Assembly: GCA_019338205.1 (NCBI GenBank)
Contig: GCA_019338205.1_4761.1
DNA length: 64,000 nt
Source: a phage
Reading direction: 5' to 3' (one strand)
Within the stretch, counting starts at the first letter, position 1. Every line of letters begins with the position of its first letter. A model generated the notes under the pieces. The model was not told the DNA's origin. It ran no database searches and saw only the letters and a program-made list of their open reading frames with translations. Position numbers and translations under genes: made by a program. Of the stretch, positions 40,655 to 49,033 are shown piece by piece.

Positions 40655-41017
40655 ATGCTAGGTCATTCTAAAATAGAAGATTGCTCATTCAGAGCAATGA
40701 AAGATGATTTTTCGGTCCTGTACGCGTCTATCCGAGAGTTGTTTGTAGATTTTAAGCAATTCAGAGAATACAAAGGCGTTAAGATGCGGGAGTGGGTATT
40801 CTGGCCTTTCTATATCATTACTCTGTTTTCTATGGTATTTTGTTTTGTCGGGATCACTATCGCTAGCTTTGTTACTTGCGTTTTCTTGATTATCCGGTGT
40901 ATCATGTTTGCTTTGATTGCTGCCCCGTTTATTGTGTCAATCCTTCCGTTAAAATGGCTATTGGATTGGGCTGATAAATCTGATAAAGTAAAGAATGTGA
41001 TTTGTAAGCGTGTATGA
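40655..41017 (+). CDS. predicted integral membrane protein
   Basis: 120 aa with two or three hydrophobic helices (FYIITLFSMVFCFVGITIASFV, IMFALIAAPFIVSILPL); adjacent to gp52. Confidence 0.6.
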   Translation: MLGHSKIEDCSFRAMKDDFSVLYASIRELFVDFKQFREYKGVKMREWVFWPFYIITLFSMVFCFVGITIASFVTCVFLIIRCIMFALIAAPFIVSILPLKWLLDWADKSDKVKNVICKRV

Positions 41018-41024
41018 GGTGAAG

Positions 41025-42371
41025 ATGAATAAATCAGTTACTTACCGCAGCCTTGAAAGCATTGTACATAATGAAGCTAAGGAATATGCGATCTATTCCG
41101 CCGAGGAACGCGGTATTCCTCAATTAGTAGATGGTCTTAAACCAGTGCAACGCTTTGTTATGGAATGCGCTTTGCAAAAGAGTAAAGGCGACCGTAAGAA
41201 ATTCCGTAAGATGGCAGATATTGGATCTGGTGTTGCTGAGTTGGGTTATCACCACGGGGAAACTAATGCCGTAGAAGCCGGATCACTCATGGCGAATACA
41301 TGGAGCAATAATACTCCACTGCTTGACGGTCAAGGTAACTTCGGATCGCGTTTAGTCCAGAAAGCGGGTGCGGCACGTTATATTTTTGCTCGTGTGCATG
41401 AAAACTTCTTTAAAATCTATAAAGATATGAATTGCGCACCTAAGCACGAAGATCTGGAACACATCCCGCCAGCGTTCTACTTGCCAGTTGTGCCAATGGT
41501 ATTGGCTAATGGTATTAGTGGTATTGCTACAGGGTATAAAACTGACATTTTACCGCATTCACTGGAAAGCCTCATTGAATGCACAGAGCTAGCACTTGCC
41601 GGAAAACTGGATAAAGAACCTAGTGTTCAATTCCCGAAATTCACGGGTAAAGTTATCCCGCGAGATGATCGCGATGGTGTGATTCTTGAGGGTACATATG
41701 AACTAAACGGCAAGACTAAGCTGACAATATCAGAAGTTCCTTATAAGTTCGACCGTGAAGAATATGTAGCGGTACTGGATGCACTGGAAGAAAAAGATCT
41801 GATTGTATCGTATAATGACCGTTGCTCTAAGGATGGATTCAGATTTGAAGTAACACTGAAACGCGATTATTTCAAAAGCGAAGATGAATCCGCTCGACAT
41901 GAGCAAATCATGAAGGATTTTAAACTAACACAGTTAGTAGCCCAGAATATCGTAGTGGTTAATGAACGTGGTTTAGTAGAAGTATTCGAGAAAGCGAGCG
42001 ATCTGATCCGTCGATTCGTCGAAATCCGATTAGGGTATGTCGATAAGCGCATTGAATTGATGCAAGCGGAAACGCTGGAAGCATACAATTATGCAATGGC
42101 TAAAGCCGAATTTATCGATCGCGTAATTAAGGGCGAAATCGAGCTACAGGGAAAGAAAAAGGCCGAGGTAATGCAATCCATCAATGGACATGAAAAACTG
42201 CGTCCATACGCCGATAAGCTAGTTTCTATGCCATTGTATAGCGTTACTCAAGAAGAGTATGATCGACTGGTCAAAGATGCCGAGAAACATCATAGTGAAT
42301 ATGAGTATTGGACAAAGACGACCGCAATGAAGGAATATAAGAAAGATCTTAAAGAACTTAAGAAGGGTTGA
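41025..42371 (+). CDS. 52: DNA topoisomerase II medium subunit gp52 (GyrA-like)
   Basis: PVQRFV, GYHHGE, DGQGNFGS, RYIFAR with active-site Tyr region; matches remembered T4 gp52. Confidence 0.93.
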   Translation: MNKSVTYRSLESIVHNEAKEYAIYSAEERGIPQLVDGLKPVQRFVMECALQKSKGDRKKFRKMADIGSGVAELGYHHGETNAVEAGSLMANTWSNNTPLLDGQGNFGSRLVQKAGAARYIFARVHENFFKIYKDMNCAPKHEDLEHIPPAFYLPVVPMVLANGISGIATGYKTDILPHSLESLIECTELALAGKLDKEPSVQFPKFTGKVIPRDDRDGVILEGTYELNGKTKLTISEVPYKFDREEYVAVLDALEEKDLIVSYNDRCSKDGFRFEVTLKRDYFKSEDESARHEQIMKDFKLTQLVAQNIVVVNERGLVEVFEKASDLIRRFVEIRLGYVDKRIELMQAETLEAYNYAMAKAEFIDRVIKGEIELQGKKKAEVMQSINGHEKLRPYADKLVSMPLYSVTQEEYDRLVKDAEKHHSEYEYWTKTTAMKEYKKDLKELKKG

Positions 42372-43015: not shown

Positions 43016-43044
43016 TTGACTTCACGAATCCAGCCTCGCATAAT
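43016..43044 (+). promoter_or_regulatory. sigma70-type early promoter with conserved ATAATACAC.CATACCAA leader
   Basis: TTGACT 43016-43021, 17-nt spacer, CATAAT 43039-43044. Confidence 0.55.
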
Positions 43045-43352: not shown

Positions 43353-43514
43353 ATGAACTGGTATAAAATTTGGAAAAATCAGGTGGAGGCTTATCTAGGG
43401 TATAAGCCCACCGACGAAGAATTACTTGAAGCAATGTACGAAGACGGACTAAATCCGAAAGTAGCCGCGCAAGAATACGCGGAATGGGTGAAGGTCGAAA
43501 ATAATTTAAAATAG
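43353..43514 (+). CDS. small hypothetical protein (53 aa)
   Basis: track ORF 43284..43514 trimmed to ATG 43353. Confidence 0.45.
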   Translation: MNWYKIWKNQVEAYLGYKPTDEELLEAMYEDGLNPKVAAQEYAEWVKVENNLK

Positions 43515-43517
43515 TTG

Positions 43518-43546
43518 TTGACGTAAAGAAACGGGAGTAGTAATAT
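43518..43546 (+). promoter_or_regulatory. PeSL-like early promoter
   Basis: TTGACG 43518-43523, TAATAT 43541-43546, GGGAGTA/TACTCCC inverted repeat. Confidence 0.55.
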
Positions 43547-43578
43547 ACTCCCATACCAAACGAAAGAAGGAGAATCAC

Positions 43579-43791
43579 ATGAAATCTAGTGAGCAAGTAG
43601 TGACTGAATTTATGAGCTACGAAGGAAACCGCATCTTTGGACGTTCTCAAGTTCGCGAGATCGTAGAAGAAGTTGCGGGAGAGTTTGCGGAATCTGGTCA
43701 CGTTATCACGCAAGAACGTAAAGAAGAAGCAGTAAGCCAGATCATGGCTATGCAGAAAATGCGTATTAATGCACGAGCGGGTAAAAATTAA
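43579..43791 (+). CDS. hypothetical protein
   Basis: 70 aa; GAAGGAGAATCAC leader. Confidence 0.6.
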   Translation: MKSSEQVVTEFMSYEGNRIFGRSQVREIVEEVAGEFAESGHVITQERKEEAVSQIMAMQKMRINARAGKN

Positions 43792-43801
43792 AAAATAGTT
43801 G

Positions 43802-43830
43802 TTGACAGGGGATCGGCGATCCCCTATACT
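43802..43830 (+). promoter_or_regulatory. PeSL-like early promoter
   Basis: TTGACA 43802-43807, palindrome GGGGATC-GGC-GATCCCC in the spacer, TATACT 43825-43830. Confidence 0.55.
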
Positions 43831-43861
43831 AAACTCATCAAGACAACGAAGGAGAATCAAA

Positions 43862-44017
43862 ATGAAACATACTCACAAATTAATGGTTAAATTTTAAGGC
43901 GCTAAAGGATATGAACGTTACGGTGTATTCTTCTCTGAGGATGATGCATGGAATGCTGGTCTGGCAACGTTCGCCGAGCACAACAACATTGAAGACTTTA
44001 CTGTAGAAGAAATTTAA
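43862..44017 (+). pseudogene. small ORF interrupted by an in-frame TAA after codon 11 (nonsense allele or readthrough candidate)
   Basis: ATG 43862 with AAGGAGAATCAAA RBS; MKHTHKLMVKF, then TAA at about 43895-43897, then 39 further in-frame sense codons to a stop at about 44015-44017. Confidence 0.4.
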
Positions 44018-44024
44018 AAAGTAG

Positions 44025-44053
44025 TTGACACCGGATTAAGGGAGTAGTAAGAT
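44025..44053 (+). promoter_or_regulatory. PeSL-like early promoter
   Basis: TTGACA 44025-44030, TAAGAT 44048-44053, GGGAGTA/TACTCCC inverted repeat. Confidence 0.55.
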
Positions 44054-44087
44054 ACTCCCATCAAGACAAAACACTGAGGAATATATT

Positions 44088-44846
44088 ATGAAAAACATTA
44101 TCGCTGCTATCGTTCTTTCTGCTACTGCTTTCGGTGCTAACGCTGCGTCCTTTGATTGCGCTAAAGCTACTACCAAATCAGAGAAGTTTATTTGTGCTAA
44201 TGAGTCTATCTCCGCACTGGACTCTAAACTTCATGAAGTGTATGTTAAGGCTGTTAAGATTGATCCGTCTCTGAAACAAGAGCAACGAAACTGGAATAAA
44301 ACTGTTCGTGATACAATGATCAATATCGGGCAGATTCAGCCACTGGAGGCTGTATACAACGCTCAAATCCAAAACTTGATGAATGTATTACCTAAAGAAG
44401 AAACCGCGTCAGAAAGCGATTCAGAGACTTCTGCGAAGGTTGAAGAAGAACAACCGAAACAGGAAGCAAAAGTGGTAGAAGAACCGAAGGTCGAAACTTT
44501 TACCTATCAATGCACTGTTCGCTATGAGTGGAGTATTAAAGATGGAATTTCTACCAAAATTAAAGAAGCGCCACTGTATGCCAAATATGGAAATCAACCA
44601 GGAGATCTTAAAGTAACCATTAAAAATGGGAAGATGGTTGATTTTGTATACATTGATGAATACAACGTACACAAAGCAAACGTACAAGAAACCGTTATGA
44701 CTAAAGGCGGGTTTTATAAGAATGTTGGCAAGAAAGATCTATATGAATACTCCGTTTTCGAACCAAACGACGGAACTATTCGATTTGAAAAACGTCATCC
44801 TACATTCGGTGGAGCAATTGATGTAGATCAATACGTTTGCAAGTAA
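44088..44846 (+). CDS. secreted protein with LprI/DUF1311-like N-terminal domain
   Basis: signal peptide MKNIIAAIVLSATAFGANA; SFDCAKATTKSEKFIC...LDSKL..VY...QRNW...RD pattern typical of DUF1311; acidic linker; 252 aa. Confidence 0.7.
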   Translation: MKNIIAAIVLSATAFGANAASFDCAKATTKSEKFICANESISALDSKLHEVYVKAVKIDPSLKQEQRNWNKTVRDTMINIGQIQPLEAVYNAQIQNLMNVLPKEETASESDSETSAKVEEEQPKQEAKVVEEPKVETFTYQCTVRYEWSIKDGISTKIKEAPLYAKYGNQPGDLKVTIKNGKMVDFVYIDEYNVHKANVQETVMTKGGFYKNVGKKDLYEYSVFEPNDGTIRFEKRHPTFGGAIDVDQYVCK

Positions 44847-44857
44847 GAGGTTAAATT

Positions 44858-45145
44858 ATGCAATTCAATAACATGAAGATTACAAAAGATTGGTGGAAGG
44901 CGATGCAAGATACTCCAGAAACCAAATTGAATGAGACCACAACAACAATACAAGTTGATTACGAAGATCCGAAAGACATATACAGAGAGATTTTAATCAG
45001 AGAGCTTATAAAAGCTGGAAACTATCAAACACCAGATGGCCTTATTGACATGATGGTTAAAGGTCTGTATAGTGGTAAAAATCCAGATATTTTACCGTGG
45101 TACGAGGGATATTTTAAAACATATCGTGACCACAACCGAAAATAA
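44858..45145 (+). CDS. hypothetical protein
   Basis: 95 aa. Confidence 0.55.
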   Translation: MQFNNMKITKDWWKAMQDTPETKLNETTTTIQVDYEDPKDIYREILIRELIKAGNYQTPDGLIDMMVKGLYSGKNPDILPWYEGYFKTYRDHNRK

Positions 45146-45168
45146 GTTGTTGACGTGAGGATTATATT

Positions 45169-45360
45169 ATGGTAATTTTTAATCGTGATGGTATCATAGT
45201 TCGGCAACATCCATTCCTTGAATACTATCAGGTTGAACAATGGGGATATGGGGATTGCTCGCGCTCATACGGTCAAAGCTGGGGATACCGTACAGTTTTT
45301 GAATCAACTAATATTGACAAAATACGACAGAAAGTTTTAGAACTTCTGAACGATAAGTGA
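45169..45360 (+). CDS. hypothetical protein
   Basis: 63 aa; GAGGATTATATTATG leader directly after a TTGACG remnant. Confidence 0.5.
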   Translation: MVIFNRDGIIVRQHPFLEYYQVEQWGYGDCSRSYGQSWGYRTVFESTNIDKIRQKVLELLNDK

Positions 45361-45370
45361 GGATTGCATC

Positions 45371-45739
45371 ATGGAAATTCAAAACAATTACGAAAAATGT
45401 GTTATTATCAATGATCTGCAACGTCAATTGCATCATTACGAAACCGATTATAAAACATCAACAAAAACCGGAAAGTTGAAAGTGTGGGAAGTCTGGTATA
45501 ACCGAAACTATCTGGGAAGCATCCACAAACTTGATCGCAGTGATGTTTATACAATGCATGTAGGCGCTTGTGGTGAATCGGATGTAGCATCTAATTTCAT
45601 GGAAGCACTTGCATTCTATGTAGAATATCTGGTAGACTATATCGAGTTGGAAGAGGAAGTGGTAGAATTGCTTCCTCCACCGGAAGAAGCGCCGGAAGCA
45701 ACGATCCTGAAAGCATTAAAGAAAATCTTTGTTAAGTGA
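45371..45739 (+). CDS. hypothetical protein
   Basis: 122 aa. Confidence 0.55.
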   Translation: MEIQNNYEKCVIINDLQRQLHHYETDYKTSTKTGKLKVWEVWYNRNYLGSIHKLDRSDVYTMHVGACGESDVASNFMEALAFYVEYLVDYIELEEEVVELLPPPEEAPEATILKALKKIFVK

Positions 45740-45747
45740 GGTGAACT

Positions 45748-46080
45748 ATGAAAAATGTACTGATTGTGTGGGAACTGATTCCAGAAACTACTGAATTATA
45801 CATGGTACAGGTTGATAATAAAGAATTTGAAATTCTGAAACGCGTCAACTGCAAATATATTAACATTGATGACATAACCCCAGAAATGGACTATGTAAAC
45901 TATGCTCTCATGCAGCCTAGTTGGATTATGGATGAAACTAAAGCAGACGCCGAATCGCTGGGTGTACCGGAAGAAGTATTAGCGAAATGGCATCAATTCA
46001 AAGTTGAAATAAAGGAGGGCGAACCGTTTATTCCTAGCGGTATGATCGATGCGGTGATCGTAACAGGTTTTCATCTGTAA
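45748..46080 (+). CDS. hypothetical protein
   Basis: 110 aa. Confidence 0.55.
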   Translation: MKNVLIVWELIPETTELYMVQVDNKEFEILKRVNCKYINIDDITPEMDYVNYALMQPSWIMDETKADAESLGVPEEVLAKWHQFKVEIKEGEPFIPSGMIDAVIVTGFHL

Positions 46081-46092
46081 GGAGATTATACA

Positions 46093-46425
46093 ATGTTTAA
46101 CTATGACAAATATGAATCATGGAAAGCGACCGAATTGAAAGAGGCAGCGCGGTTAATCACACCGCGTCTTTATCCGGTGCTGTTTAGCGCCGATAAAGTA
46201 ACAAGGGAAGTCAACGAGGCGCTATCGGTTTTAGGCTATCTGATCGATAAAGTAGAGAAAACATCGGTATTCACAAATAGCGTAGAATATACACGGTATC
46301 GAGTGTTTTTAGATTCCTTGCTCGTTGTCATTAAGGCACTAAATGATCATAACTACACCATGAACATGACGAAAATAATCGACGAAGCAAGAATTATGAC
46401 AGAGAATATTTTCGGTAAATTTTGA
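46093..46425 (+). CDS. hypothetical protein, paralog of 46540..46863
   Basis: 110 aa; C-terminus ...ARIMTENIFGKF versus ...ARKLAENVYGKF in the next gene. Confidence 0.55.
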   Translation: MFNYDKYESWKATELKEAARLITPRLYPVLFSADKVTREVNEALSVLGYLIDKVEKTSVFTNSVEYTRYRVFLDSLLVVIKALNDHNYTMNMTKIIDEARIMTENIFGKF

Positions 46426-46428
46426 TTA

Positions 46429-46554
46429 TGAAAGATGATGAATCATTGAAAATTGCACTGGTTATGTTATTACACTGTATAGAATTAGCAAACCACGAAA
46501 AAATGTTGAAACAACAGCGTGAAATTATGAGAGGTGATTATGATCGAGTTTGAA
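46429..46554 (+). CDS. possible small ORF (about 41 aa), not on the ORF track
   Basis: hand translation MKDDESLKIALVMLLHCIELANHEKMLKQQREIMRGDYDRV; coordinates approximate. Confidence 0.3.
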
Positions 46555-46863
46555 ATTGACAACTTTCACGAAAAAGCAGAAGACATAACCAAAATTTTGA
46601 TTAGTCGAGGTGCATATAATACTAAAGATATTATAAAAGAAGTTAATGTAGCGATGGACGCGATCCGAAATGAATTTAAACATATTTCAGAGATTGGAGA
46701 AAATGGTCATCTTGAAGATGTTGAGCTGGTAGCACTGCGACGCTATTACTTCTTTGTTGATTGCATCATTGATCTAGCTAAAAATTATAGTCATTACATG
46801 AAAGATATTGTAAAAGATGCACGTAAGCTGGCAGAGAATGTTTACGGGAAGTTTCCAGAATGA
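46540..46863 (+). CDS. hypothetical protein, paralog of 46093..46425
   Basis: track ORF 46534..46863 trimmed to ATG. Confidence 0.55.
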   Translation: MIEFEIDNFHEKAEDITKILISRGAYNTKDIIKEVNVAMDAIRNEFKHISEIGENGHLEDVELVALRRYYFFVDCIIDLAKNYSHYMKDIVKDARKLAENVYGKFPE

Positions 46864-47108
46864 AATTAGAACAAGCGATTGTATACTTTGAGATGGGCTA
46901 TGATATTGCTCGTGTAGAGTGGGAAGATGGTGATTTTGTCCGATTGATTGATCTTCCAGAAACAGCTATTGCACTGGTCAAAGTAGAAAACGGCATACAA
47001 CGCAATTACGCGTTTTCTGACGAAGACAAACAAGCCGATGACTGGTACGCTACATGTTTTCATCATACAGCGTCAAAATGCGATTCAGGCGCGTCTATGC
47101 GTCAATAA
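46860..47108 (+). CDS. DUF2829-like small protein (candidate Tad2-type anti-defence sponge)
   Basis: 82 aa; N-terminal MKLEQAIVYFEMGYDIARVEW and C-terminal YAFSDEDKQADDWY fit my recollection of the DUF2829 pattern. Confidence 0.5.
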   Translation: MKLEQAIVYFEMGYDIARVEWEDGDFVRLIDLPETAIALVKVENGIQRNYAFSDEDKQADDWYATCFHHTASKCDSGASMRQ

Positions 47109-47140
47109 AAAAGAAGGGGAGGCCGAAAGGCTTCCCCTTT
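47106..47140. terminator. bidirectional terminator at the convergence of the plus-strand early cluster and the minus-strand late operon
   Basis: AAGGGGAGGCCGAAAGGCTTCCCCTT hairpin; A-run upstream gives a T-run on the minus strand directly after holin t. Confidence 0.7.
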
Positions 47141-47143
47141 AAG

Positions 47144-47800
47144 TTATCTAATCCTTCCGAGGATTCTGGCAGATTGATTGCAAAGAGTATCTAAATTCTC
47201 AATGTCAATATCCGGTTTATTCTTCCATGCAATGGAGATACTACCAGAATAGACATTGTCGAGATTGAATATAGGACAAGAATACATAACCCCTATATCG
47301 ATACTCTCTAATTTCTTTTCTCTTGATGGAATATACTGGAAATCTTTATCGGTAAAATAGGATTTACCTAAAAGATGCCTACGATATTCTTCACTCGTTT
47401 TATTGATAGGGAATCCGCCTAAATTCTTTTCGTCGATCGTATGAGGTAGCTTTCCTTCATATGCCACCAAATCAACAAAATAGTTTAGGTTTTTCGGACG
47501 AAAACTAAAAACAGCAGAAAAATCGGCATCAGCCGACACATGAACTATCTGTAACTGCTCCTGTGCTGCATTATCAAAATTGCGGTCTTTCTCTACCTGG
47601 AGAACGTGAGCATAAGTCTCATAACGAGTCTCTTTATAAAGCGCAAATAACTCGTTTTTACTATAAACGACAAATGCTAATATAGACAACACGACGGCAG
47701 CAAAAACACGAAGTACGAGCAACTCCGTGCTTTTAGTTGTGAAAATAGCGCGCAGGACATTTGAGATAGCAAAGTCTTTCCCTTTTTCAGAAACTTGCAT
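47144..47800 (-). CDS. t: holin T
   Basis: 218 aa, same length as T4 T; LEQLQIVHVSADADFSAVFSFRPKNLNYFVDLVAYEGKLP and CNQSARILGR match remembered T4 holin; N-terminal transmembrane segment. Confidence 0.93.
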   Translation of the reverse strand: MQVSEKGKDFAISNVLRAIFTTKSTELLVLRVFAAVVLSILAFVVYSKNELFALYKETRYETYAHVLQVEKDRNFDNAAQEQLQIVHVSADADFSAVFSFRPKNLNYFVDLVAYEGKLPHTIDEKNLGGFPINKTSEEYRRHLLGKSYFTDKDFQYIPSREKKLESIDIGVMYSCPIFNLDNVYSGSISIAWKNKPDIDIENLDTLCNQSARILGRIR

Positions 47801-47833
47801 ATAATGCCCTAAGATAACTATGACAGTGTACTC

Positions 47834-48073
47834 TTATTTAGGTACTTGACTATCACTAGGTTTATCTTGCTCGTTGCTATCTTCTGACTGATCTTTATTA
47901 AACTCCTTATAAAGTTCTTCCACAAAACGATCATCAATTGGCGTATTGGTATAAGCCGCAAGACGACGAGCGCAATAGAAGAAAATTTTAGTGAGCATCT
48001 TTTCACTAATTAACTTTGACAATAGTTTCATTCCGAAATTAGACAAAGCACCAATGACGATATTATAGACCAT
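47834..48073 (-). CDS. hypothetical protein with hydrophobic N-terminus
   Basis: 79 aa; strong RBS AAGGAGAAACGGCT before the ATG; between the Gly-rich ORFs and holin. Confidence 0.6.
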   Translation of the reverse strand: MVYNIVIGALSNFGMKLLSKLISEKMLTKIFFYCARRLAAYTNTPIDDRFVEELYKEFNKDQSEDSNEQDKPSDSQVPK

Positions 48074-48126
48074 AGCCGTTTCTCCTTAGTAGTTCCCTTC
48101 CCTGGGAGTTTTCCTTAATTCTTTTT

Positions 48127-48429
48127 TTAACGGTTGCTCAAGCGTCTATAACGAAGATGGGAAATACCCCTGTTTGTAGTTACCGTGATCGTTACTCCCT
48201 GCGGCACAATACAAGAATGGATCTGTCCCCAATCATGACCCTTATGACTTCCAGACACACAGAAGCCATGCAAAAGCAATTCTGAGTCACCACCGCCACC
48301 ACCAGAAGAACTAGCACCAAATGAAACCGTACCGAAAGCGTCGGCTGTCCAACCGTTAGGAATATCAAACCATCCCTGATTCGCTTTACCGGCTTTATTG
48401 TCTAAAACTCCATACACCCAATATCCCAT
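48127..48429 (-). CDS. glycine-rich small protein, paralog 3 of 3
   Basis: 100 aa; W.DIPNGW motif and GGGGG run; tightly packed with its paralogs. Confidence 0.6.
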   Translation of the reverse strand: MGYWVYGVLDNKAGKANQGWFDIPNGWTADAFGTVSFGASSSGGGGGDSELLLHGFCVSGSHKGHDWGQIHSCIVPQGVTITVTTNRGISHLRYRRLSNR

Positions 48430-48734
48430 TAATGCATTCTCCTAAATTGGAAGTGGTTTAAACTTCCTTTACCAATACTAAAACTGACAGTAGCGCCAGC
48501 ACCAACTAAAGAACTTGCTCCCCAACTTCCTGCATTACCAGCGTGATGACCTGATTCGAGAGTACCGTTTACATATAATTCTGCGTCCAGGTCACCACCG
48601 CCACCAACGGCTTCGGCATGAACAGACACAATACCGCATGAATCAGCCACCCAACCATTAGGGATACCAAACCACCCACCATTAGCATAAATGCTAATAG
48701 CATTAGCCATTCTTCCCGCAACCCATCCAGCCAT
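48429..48734 (-). CDS. glycine-rich small protein, paralog 2 of 3
   Basis: 101 aa; GGWFGIPNGWVADSCG, GGGGD. Confidence 0.6.
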   Translation of the reverse strand: MAGWVAGRMANAISIYANGGWFGIPNGWVADSCGIVSVHAEAVGGGGDLDAELYVNGTLESGHHAGNAGSWGASSLVGAGATVSFSIGKGSLNHFQFRRMH

Positions 48735-48736
48735 AA

Positions 48737-49033
48737 TTAAAACTCCATAAATTTAAAGTATTCAATACCACCGCCACCACCATGACCAAAGGTGACAGTA
48801 CATCCAGCAGGAACAAACGCATTAACCGTAAATCCCCAATCCCCACCACCACGACGACGCGCGGCGACCACACCGTCAACGGAAATATGAATATCACCCC
48901 AAACATCACGAGCGGTATGCCGCAAAACGGCAACACCAGCACGACCGGGGACATATCCATTAGGAATGTCAAATACATGCCATTTTACAGCATCGATTTT
49001 AGTTCCTTGTTCATTACTTACCCAATAGCCCAT
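48737..49033 (-). CDS. glycine-rich small protein, paralog 1 of 3
   Basis: 98 aa; FDIPNGYVP, GGGGG near the C-terminus; immediately downstream of gp37. Confidence 0.6.
   Translation of the reverse strand: MGYWVSNEQGTKIDAVKWHVFDIPNGYVPGRAGVAVLRHTARDVWGDIHISVDGVVAARRRGGGDWGFTVNAFVPAGCTVTFGHGGGGGIEYFKFMEF

Follow-up and report, generated by a model that had tools for sequence, protein, structure and literature searches.

A conserved, acidic Tad2-like protein with a remodelled putative pocket in Krischvirus phages

Tad2 of phage SPO1 is a type I Thoeris sponge for 1''-3' glycocyclic ADP-ribose (gcADPR). The ligand of the Tad2 fold has shifted in other members: ModTad2 binds histidine-ADP-ribose (His-ADPR) and cyclic UMP (cUMP), Tad2_71 binds N7-cyclic ADP-ribose (N7-cADPR), and HgmTad2 binds cyclic dinucleotides. 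Known sponges all have positively charged pockets, located at oligomer interfaces (10.1101/2025.07.12.664507). Hadary et al. tested 84 sponge homologues against seven systems; 19 of the 84 hit none of them, for which the authors propose undiscovered signals (bioRxiv 10.1101/2025.08.24.671296). Here we describe a small gene at positions 46860..47108 (+ strand, stop codon included) of a 64,000-nucleotide stretch of phage DNA (GenBank assembly GCA_019338205.1, contig GCA_019338205.1_4761.1; hereafter the window), the product of which, below called the target protein, had been predicted from the sequence to be DUF2829-like and a candidate anti-Thoeris sponge of the Tad2 type. Our analysis places it as an unreported member of this known family, in a divergent acidic clade that had been sampled once before (Tad2_80, with a negative outcome).

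The open reading frame (ORF) has 82 codons, with an ATG start and a TAA stop, and its product is 100% identical to RB49p255 (NP_891826.1). The region shares 98% identity with Escherichia phage RB49 and 58 further Krischvirus genomes (Straboviridae). The protein is carried by 59 Krischvirus records with identities of 97.6-100%, and among the Krischvirus records listed, RB49 included, it is annotated as 'hypothetical protein' or 'Phage protein', or is unannotated (two records). The ratio of nonsynonymous to synonymous polymorphism (pN/pS) was 0.08 (pS 0.156, pN 0.013) in a sample of eight alleles picked from the most divergent ones. Residues W21, E22, D23, Y50, S53, D56, D61 and W62 showed no amino-acid change across these alleles, and synonymous changes were present in the codons of E20, G24 and Y50. 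A HMMER search of 1.84 billion representatives returned P0004 (59% identity) and P0005 (49%) as the only divergent full-length relatives; P0005 is syntenic, ending the early array of a more distant T4-type contig where it is convergent with holin gene t, with a gp38 adhesin gene beyond. An IMG/VR scan with the subfamily alignment as query returned two Krischvirus contigs and nothing else. The predicted 82-aa ORF is a real gene under strong purifying selection, and on the basis of the ORF, the RB49 identity, the Pfam match described below and pN/pS we call it the gene of a mini-Tad2-like protein orthologous to RB49p255. One further sequence, P0002 (83 aa; ENA contig of 3785 bp), does not look like a real variant. 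It agrees with the target protein up to about residue 58 and then continues as ...DKITVFPFYTSNIITHLKINNRLF, which is what the antisense strand of the 5' part of this same gene encodes (the antisense ORF of the window at 46866-47066 (-) reads ...DKITIFPLYTSNIIAHLKVYNRLF), and it resembles a fold-back assembly chimera.

A search against PF11195, now named 'Tad2-like', matched the target protein at 27.9 bits (gathering cutoff 25; E = 3.4e-6), aligning aa 1-63 with profile positions 1-71 of 73, which bears out the DUF2829 assignment of the original prediction. The target's relatives scored 20.7-26.5 bits, and a PF11195 match was precomputed for P0001. The protein also matched PHROG 1048 (unknown function) at 5e-19 and had no match in NCBIfam. 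Both motifs on which the original prediction had drawn are present, namely F10-EMGYDIARVE-W21 in the N-terminal part and Y50-AFSDEDKQADD-W62 in the C-terminal part. The AlphaFold2 (AF2) model, with a predicted local distance difference test (pLDDT) score of ~85 over residues 1-67, contains helix alpha1, five strands and a short helix ahead of the last strand. The folded core (aa 1-65; 46860..47054, +) is composed of alpha1 3-11, beta1 14-18, beta2 26-32, beta3 36-43, beta4 46-50, the short helix 54-58 and beta5 62-67, and is followed by a C-terminal tail (aa 66-82; 47055..47105, +) predicted to be disordered from about residue 68 (pLDDT <50 at 70-73 and 75-82). T4-type orthologues have tails similar in length and different in sequence, and the Klebsiella homologues have none. 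A zinc site in the tail (C66, H68, H69, C74) was considered and rejected: C74 is Y or F in alleles, the orthologue tails are unrelated, and the Klebsiella homologues are tailless. When the model was compared with BFVD by Foldseek, ranks 2-18 (after the self-match) all had a probability of at least 0.99; eight of these entries, from unrelated phages, are named 'Thoeris anti-defense 2-like', and none is named for another family. The topology of the model is that of the Tad2 fold, which combines an N-terminal helix with a five-stranded antiparallel sheet and has a short helix ahead of the final strand.

Comparison with known Tad2 sequences gave a divided answer. A hidden Markov model (HMM) built from 110 canonical members only recognised the target at 10.3 bits (E = 2.6e-5, single comparison) with both termini in register, and the framework residues A6, R18 and D61-W62 (SPO1 A10, R22 and D84-W85) are invariant in the joint alignment and present in 110/110 canonical members. 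These 110 members are a biased sample, because the candidates were gathered by words shared with SPO1 Tad2 and ModTad2. Counting against the assignment, phmmer and the subfamily profile found no match among PDB sequences, BLASTP gave no alignment of the target with SPO1 Tad2, hhalign of the subfamily with SPO1 Tad2 found the right register at only E = 0.01 and 4% probability, and Foldseek found no significant match in the PDB. With sequence links otherwise weak, it is the structural evidence (AF2 topology and BFVD matches) that carries the fold assignment, and we consider it very probable that the target protein is homologous to the Tad2/DUF2829 fold. A chance or non-functional ORF with a spurious Pfam match would agree with a score exceeding its threshold by just 2.9 bits and with the empty pairwise and PDB sequence searches. 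It is contradicted by the low pN/pS, by conservation across 59 genomes and divergent syntenic orthologues, and by independent structural matches that point to Tad2 alone; the conservation and fold data effectively refute it, leaving it a negligible probability.

The pocket was compared residue by residue with that of SPO1 Tad2, in which W25 and W73 make van der Waals contacts with the ligand, N26 and D79 contact phosphates and hydroxyls, T78 is a further contact, and S76, H71 and D67 take part in a water network. In HgmTad2, N22 and G23 of both protomers hold the diphosphate, and according to a published analysis the gcADPR site is kept in ~99% of Tad2 homologues. By alignment, the beta1-beta2 pocket loop W21-E22-D23-G24-D25 of the target (46920..46934, +) takes the place of the W-N-G-K loop that binds phosphate in canonical members, and the pocket's C-terminal segment Y50-A-F-S53-D-E55-D56-K-Q-A-D-D61-W62 (47007..47045, +) corresponds with canonical spacing to SPO1 W73..S76..T78-D79..D84-W85. 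Identical equivalences were obtained with hhalign, MAFFT and HMMER: SPO1 W25, N26, G27 and K28 pair with target W21, E22, D23 and G24, and SPO1 W73, S76, T78, D79 and D84-W85 pair with target Y50, S53, E55, D56 and D61-W62.

The ligand-stacking Trp of the loop (W25) is kept as W21, and the diphosphate-contacting Asn-Gly (N26-G27), usually followed by Lys, is replaced within E22-D23-G24-D25. Aromatic character is kept where W73, a Trp in 110/110 canonical members, has become Y50, a residue that does not vary within the subfamily. S76 and D79 (ribose hydroxyl, water network) are kept in register as S53 and D56, and T78 (adenine hydrogen bond) is E55 at a position occupied by T, S or N in 107/110 canonical members. 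In that sample W-N-G, W73, D79 and D-W are each present in 110/110 and Lys follows WNG in 89/110. Across the subfamily and the solved Tad2s, W21, D56 and D61-W62 are invariant, and the two pocket motifs are conserved in a form peculiar to the Krischvirus/Klebsiella subfamily, W-[EDVAG]-[DE] and Y-x-[FP]-[ST]-x-x-D. Absent from the target is the beta2-beta3 insertion (helix alpha2; SPO1 residues 36-59) that makes the V-shaped dimer in SPO1 Tad2 and the cyclic-dinucleotide site in HgmTad2; the AF2 model has a 3-residue turn in its place. The spacing between the two Trp residues is 41 residues in the target versus 45-78 (median 61) in canonical members, among which short forms of 45-47 exist.

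The genetic context points to expression early in infection. T4-type early promoters with a common AAAAAGTTGTTGAC motif lie at 43016, 43518, 43802 and 44025, several with embedded G-rich/C-rich stems. Promoter early stem-loop (PeSL) cassettes, in which an AT-rich tract and a sigma-70 early promoter are combined with a G-rich/C-rich stem-loop, are known from RB49 and phi1 (Arbiol et al., 2010, PMC2839356), and all of these elements were found at 43788-43830 and 44011-44059. The first of the two (43788..43830, +; 11/12 promoter match) has an AT-rich tract, TTGACA, a GGGGATCG..GATCCCC stem in the spacer and TATACT. The second (44011..44059, +) is the nearest convincing early promoter upstream of the target and is PeSL-like, with an AT-rich tract, TTGACA at 44025-44030, TAAGAT at 44048-44053 and a GGGAGTA/TACTCCC stem. 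After the 44025 promoter follow nine co-directional, tightly packed ORFs (44088 to 47108), of which the target is the last, its ATG overlapping the stop codon of the preceding ORF (ATGA, 46860-46863). No PeSL was found between 44088 and 46860, and no TATAAATA late promoter within the array. Beyond the target gene lies a 12-bp GGGG...CCCC hairpin with a GAAA loop (47113..47140; -23.2 kcal/mol, z = -5.61), a probable bidirectional terminator that the annotation of phage G2248 labels 'terminator', and then holin gene t (47144..47800, -; PF11031, 203.8 bits), which is convergent with the target. An Rfam scan of 43500-48200 had no match. Given the PeSL promoters, the nine-ORF array, the lack of a late promoter and the 3' hairpin, the target gene is most probably transcribed early, and the original description of it as the last gene of a PeSL-driven array of small ORFs was correct.

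The interpretation that we favour, tentatively, is that of a Tad2-fold protein, made early and directed against host defence, in which the inter-protomer surface is still used and the specificity has changed. The target protein, a minimal (~65-aa core) and very acidic Tad2/DUF2829 homologue, would form a homo-oligomer and act early in infection as a stoichiometric binder, or sponge, that neutralises a host immune component. Its ligand would be something other than gcADPR, perhaps a small molecule that is cationic or metal-bridged. The data show a real gene, purifying selection, an early-array setting, the fold and divergence at single residues; oligomerisation, the anti-defence role and the ligand are what we infer here. 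Precedents are the ligand shifts of other Tad2 proteins and the need of T-even phages to counter TIR signals in E. coli, as T4 does with Vs.3/TadIV-1. With the pocket remodelled (W-E-D-G-D, Y for W73, E for T78, no insertion), canonical gcADPR sequestration is most likely not its function; continued use of the inter-protomer surface is proposed because W21, Y50 and D56 stay invariant. The retained W21, S53, D56 and D61-W62 likewise suggest, at the level of sequence, an interface or pocket still in use.

Several results weigh against this interpretation. The charge of the pocket loop is -3, versus +1 in 84/109 canonical members, and the net charge is -8 (core -9; subfamily -5 to -12), versus a canonical mean of -1.3 (sd 2.6). 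The C-terminal pocket segment carries -4, and all of these charges are sequence proxies for pocket electrostatics. By this proxy the target does not have the positively charged pocket of immune-signal sponges; its acidic loop and net charge disfavour a nucleotide-type ligand and make a non-sponge function a serious possibility. Loss of the alpha2 insertion, which makes the V-shaped dimer in SPO1 Tad2, means that a tetramer may not form. Finally, Tad2_80, the closest experimentally tested relative of the target (hhalign probability 94.8%, E = 5.3e-8, 58 columns; SPO1 Tad2, 4%), inhibited 0/7 systems, comprising type I, II and IV Thoeris, two cyclic oligonucleotide-based antiphage signaling systems (CBASS) and two pyrimidine cyclase systems for antiphage resistance (Pycsar) (10.1101/2025.08.24.671296), so that it provides no positive functional assignment for the target.

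The anti-Thoeris part of the original prediction, a canonical Tad2-type sponge that protects the phage by binding a Thoeris signal (1''-3' gcADPR, His-ADPR or N7-cADPR), therefore stands in its fold and PF11195 membership, and is put in doubt by the WNGK loop, W73, T78, the insertion, the loop charge and the Tad2_80 result. W21, S53 and D56 are kept and an aromatic Y50 takes the place of W73, but the diphosphate-binding N26-G27 is Glu-Asp at positions where the word-biased canonical sample has WNG (and W73) in 110/110, the loop charge is reversed, and Tad2_80 was inactive on every Thoeris type tried as well as on CBASS and Pycsar. Of the non-WNG homologues tested, 5/6 were inactive; the exception, Tad2_79 (W-S-K), inhibits type I and IV Thoeris (10.1101/2025.08.24.671296), so a non-canonical loop can still make a working sponge, and no specific similarity between the target and Tad2_79 was detectable. 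In favour of a Thoeris inhibitor, TIR systems of E. coli restrict T-even phages, type IV Thoeris among them, which T4 counters via Vs.3/TadIV-1 (PMC13243611), and many coliphages carry Tad2 genes of canonical type, with 64 records from Escherichia phages. On balance we regard canonical sequestration as improbable.

The main rival is re-purposing of the Tad2 fold to bind a host or phage protein, for instance as an acidic protein that mimics nucleic acid and so inhibits a defence or host factor which binds DNA, and we rate it as somewhat unlikely. The net charge of the target and its subfamily relative to the canonical mean, the acidic pocket loop, the lost dimerisation insertion and the inactivity of Tad2_80 against seven signalling systems all speak for it. 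The asiA-motA region of T4, beside gene t, is presumably the equivalent region and encodes small acidic protein-binding early proteins; in the same array as the target, RB49 ORF259 is annotated as resembling a protein of the T4 AsiA-MotA region. Set against this, the invariant W21, Y50 and D56 are positions that line the small-molecule pocket in Tad2, and none of the present data suggests a partner. A virion, tail or lysis-associated accessory role is a minor rival and very unlikely. It draws on placement: Klebsiella homologues lie directly 3' of tailspike genes, the gene in N4-like phage VLCpiP4a is flanked by two tail protein genes, in prophages the start of the gene is the last base of the tailspike ORF and the lysis cassette lies just 3' of the gene, and the Krischvirus gene adjoins holin t and the tail-fibre module. 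The Krischvirus gene is, however, opposite in strand to the late genes and belongs to an early-promoter array without a late promoter, morons typically occupy the interval from tailspike to lysis genes, and the fold resembles sponges, not structural proteins. An early Tad2-fold protein of changed specificity remains the interpretation that we prefer. Acidic, insertion-less mini-Tad2 proteins make up a clade in which we place RB49p255 with its T4-type orthologues, the homologues from Klebsiella phages and prophages, and Tad2_80. That this clade is functionally distinct, either capturing a not-yet-described Enterobacteriaceae signal (cationic or metal-bridged, as opposed to a free anionic nucleotide) or having switched to protein-binding inhibition, is a possibility that we rate as somewhat unlikely.

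The eight remaining genes of the array, all on the + strand and each matching a PHROG family of unknown function, lie at 44088-44846 (252 aa), 44858-45145, 45169-45360, 45371-45739 and 45748-46080, followed by 46093-46425 (110 aa; phrog_9457), 46422-46553 (43 aa; phrog_17009) and 46534-46863 (109 aa; phrog_9457). The two phrog_9457 members (2.7e-43 and 8.1e-56, respectively) are mutual paralogues with the 43-aa ORF between them. The product of 44088-44846 has a signal-like N-terminus and a PF07007 (lysozyme inhibitor LprI) match of 25.8 bits (cutoff 22); an exported protein with an LprI-like domain is an unusual early gene product for a phage. Further upstream, the gene of a gp52-type topoisomerase subunit (41010-42371) precedes a block of small ORFs, and the target region, between this gene and holin t, is hyperplastic. 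In the early promoters at 43518-43546, 43802-43830 and 44025-44053 (+) the -35/-10 spacer harbours a stem-loop or is spanned by one (stems GGGGATCG..GATCCCC at 43808-43824 and GGGAGTA..TACTCCC at 44040-44059), so that the terminator and promoter parts of the PeSL physically overlap. The only other sigma-70-like site inside the array, at 45045-45073 (+; TTGACA-17-TATAGT, 11/12), which lies within the ORF at 44858-45145 and lacks the AT-rich extended motif, was rejected as probably due to chance; alternatively, it could drive the array's last seven ORFs from within.

On the far side of holin t, three tandem paralogous glycine-rich ORFs of ~100 aa (48127-48429, 48429-48734 and 48737-49033, all -) lie between the gene of a 1020-aa distal tail fibre and a Dc5-like ORF plus the holin. 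Their products start with MGYWV or MAGWV, have an 'IPNGW' motif and a GGGG run in common, and had no Pfam or PHROG match. The DNA of 48127-49033 was found in three Krischvirus records only (80-95% identity), and the RB49 annotation has no separate genes there; this segment may be a variable cassette that encodes a tail-fibre tip, an adhesin or a chaperone. The Klebsiella mini-Tad2 homologues (68-72 aa; L002:2953-3159, L008, L009 and L010:8001-8216) come immediately after a tailspike or tail gene in phages of two unrelated kinds, the N4-like Kaypoctavirus and prophages in which the gene is just ahead of the holin genes. This placement suggests either that tailspike modules carry the small gene along or that its location is a moron site.

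Sponges have repeatedly revealed new bacterial immune signals, as Tad1 did for 3'cADPR and ModTad2 for His-ADPR. That the target belongs to this family is unsurprising, and as Krischvirus annotations read 'hypothetical' or 'Phage protein' the assignment is a useful annotation correction. A conserved, chemically inverted pocket in a model phage is a good orphan-sponge lead: strict conservation in a tractable coliphage genus, purifying selection and a chemically opposite pocket together offer a practical handle, and the target protein could lead to a signalling molecule not yet described or reveal another use for the Tad2 fold. If the mini-Tad2 clade is functionally distinct, RB49 would be a tractable bait with which to find an unrecognised defence pathway of E. 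coli; if the protein is an ordinary Thoeris inhibitor, Krischvirus merely joins a long list of Tad2-carrying phages. We found no paper connecting Tad2 or Thoeris to RB49 or Krischvirus, and no gene like T4 Acb2 in the window.

Among the characterised proteins, SPO1 Tad2 (PDB 8SME/8SMF/8SMG, 8WJE) is gp34.65 in the SPO1 genome, in agreement with the published residue numbers and accession YP_002300464.1. The target shares with it PF11195, the order of secondary structure, the equivalents of A10, R22, W25, S76, D79 and D84-W85, and the spacing of the C-terminal motif. It differs in having E-D-G for N26-G27-K28, Y for W73, E for T78 and Q for L81, in that the 24-residue insertion (36-59) has shrunk to a turn, in its extra 17-aa tail, predicted to be disordered, and in being much more acidic (-8 versus about -3, by residue count). 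ModTad2 (PDB 8V3E, 9EIB), which comes from a prophage of Myroides odoratus and sequesters the type II Thoeris signal His-ADPR as well as the Pycsar signals cUMP and cyclic CMP, retains the WNGK and W..S..D motifs and the insertion, whereas the target has none of these canonical forms. HgmTad2, or 'AcrIIA7' (PDB 8KBI and related entries), has both gcADPR and cyclic dinucleotides as ligands; its 41-residue cyclic-dinucleotide insertion is wholly absent from the target, in which the W21-N22-G23 diphosphate site is not conserved. Tad2_80 (IMGVR_UViG_3300031873_000003, 73 aa; Table S2 of 10.1101/2025.08.24.671296) resembles the target in lacking the insertion, in its acidic loop (EWPDDG versus EWEDGD) and in its net charge of -6, and differs in having Leu at the W73 position and no C-terminal tail, with an identity of ~24%. 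Tad2_79 and Tad2_71 are family members that inhibit type IV Thoeris (N7-cADPR); unlike the target, Tad2_79 has a net charge of 0 and a basic loop residue, and Tad2_71 has a canonical WNG. Lastly, T4 Vs.3/TadIV-1 (PMC13243611) is a functional analogue, in that it is a small early sponge of Straboviridae coliphages directed against an E. coli TIR (Toll/interleukin-1 receptor) system, but it differs in not being a DUF2829 protein and in being a dimer with a pocket formed from an N-terminal flexible loop, and is according to its authors structurally distinct from known sponges.

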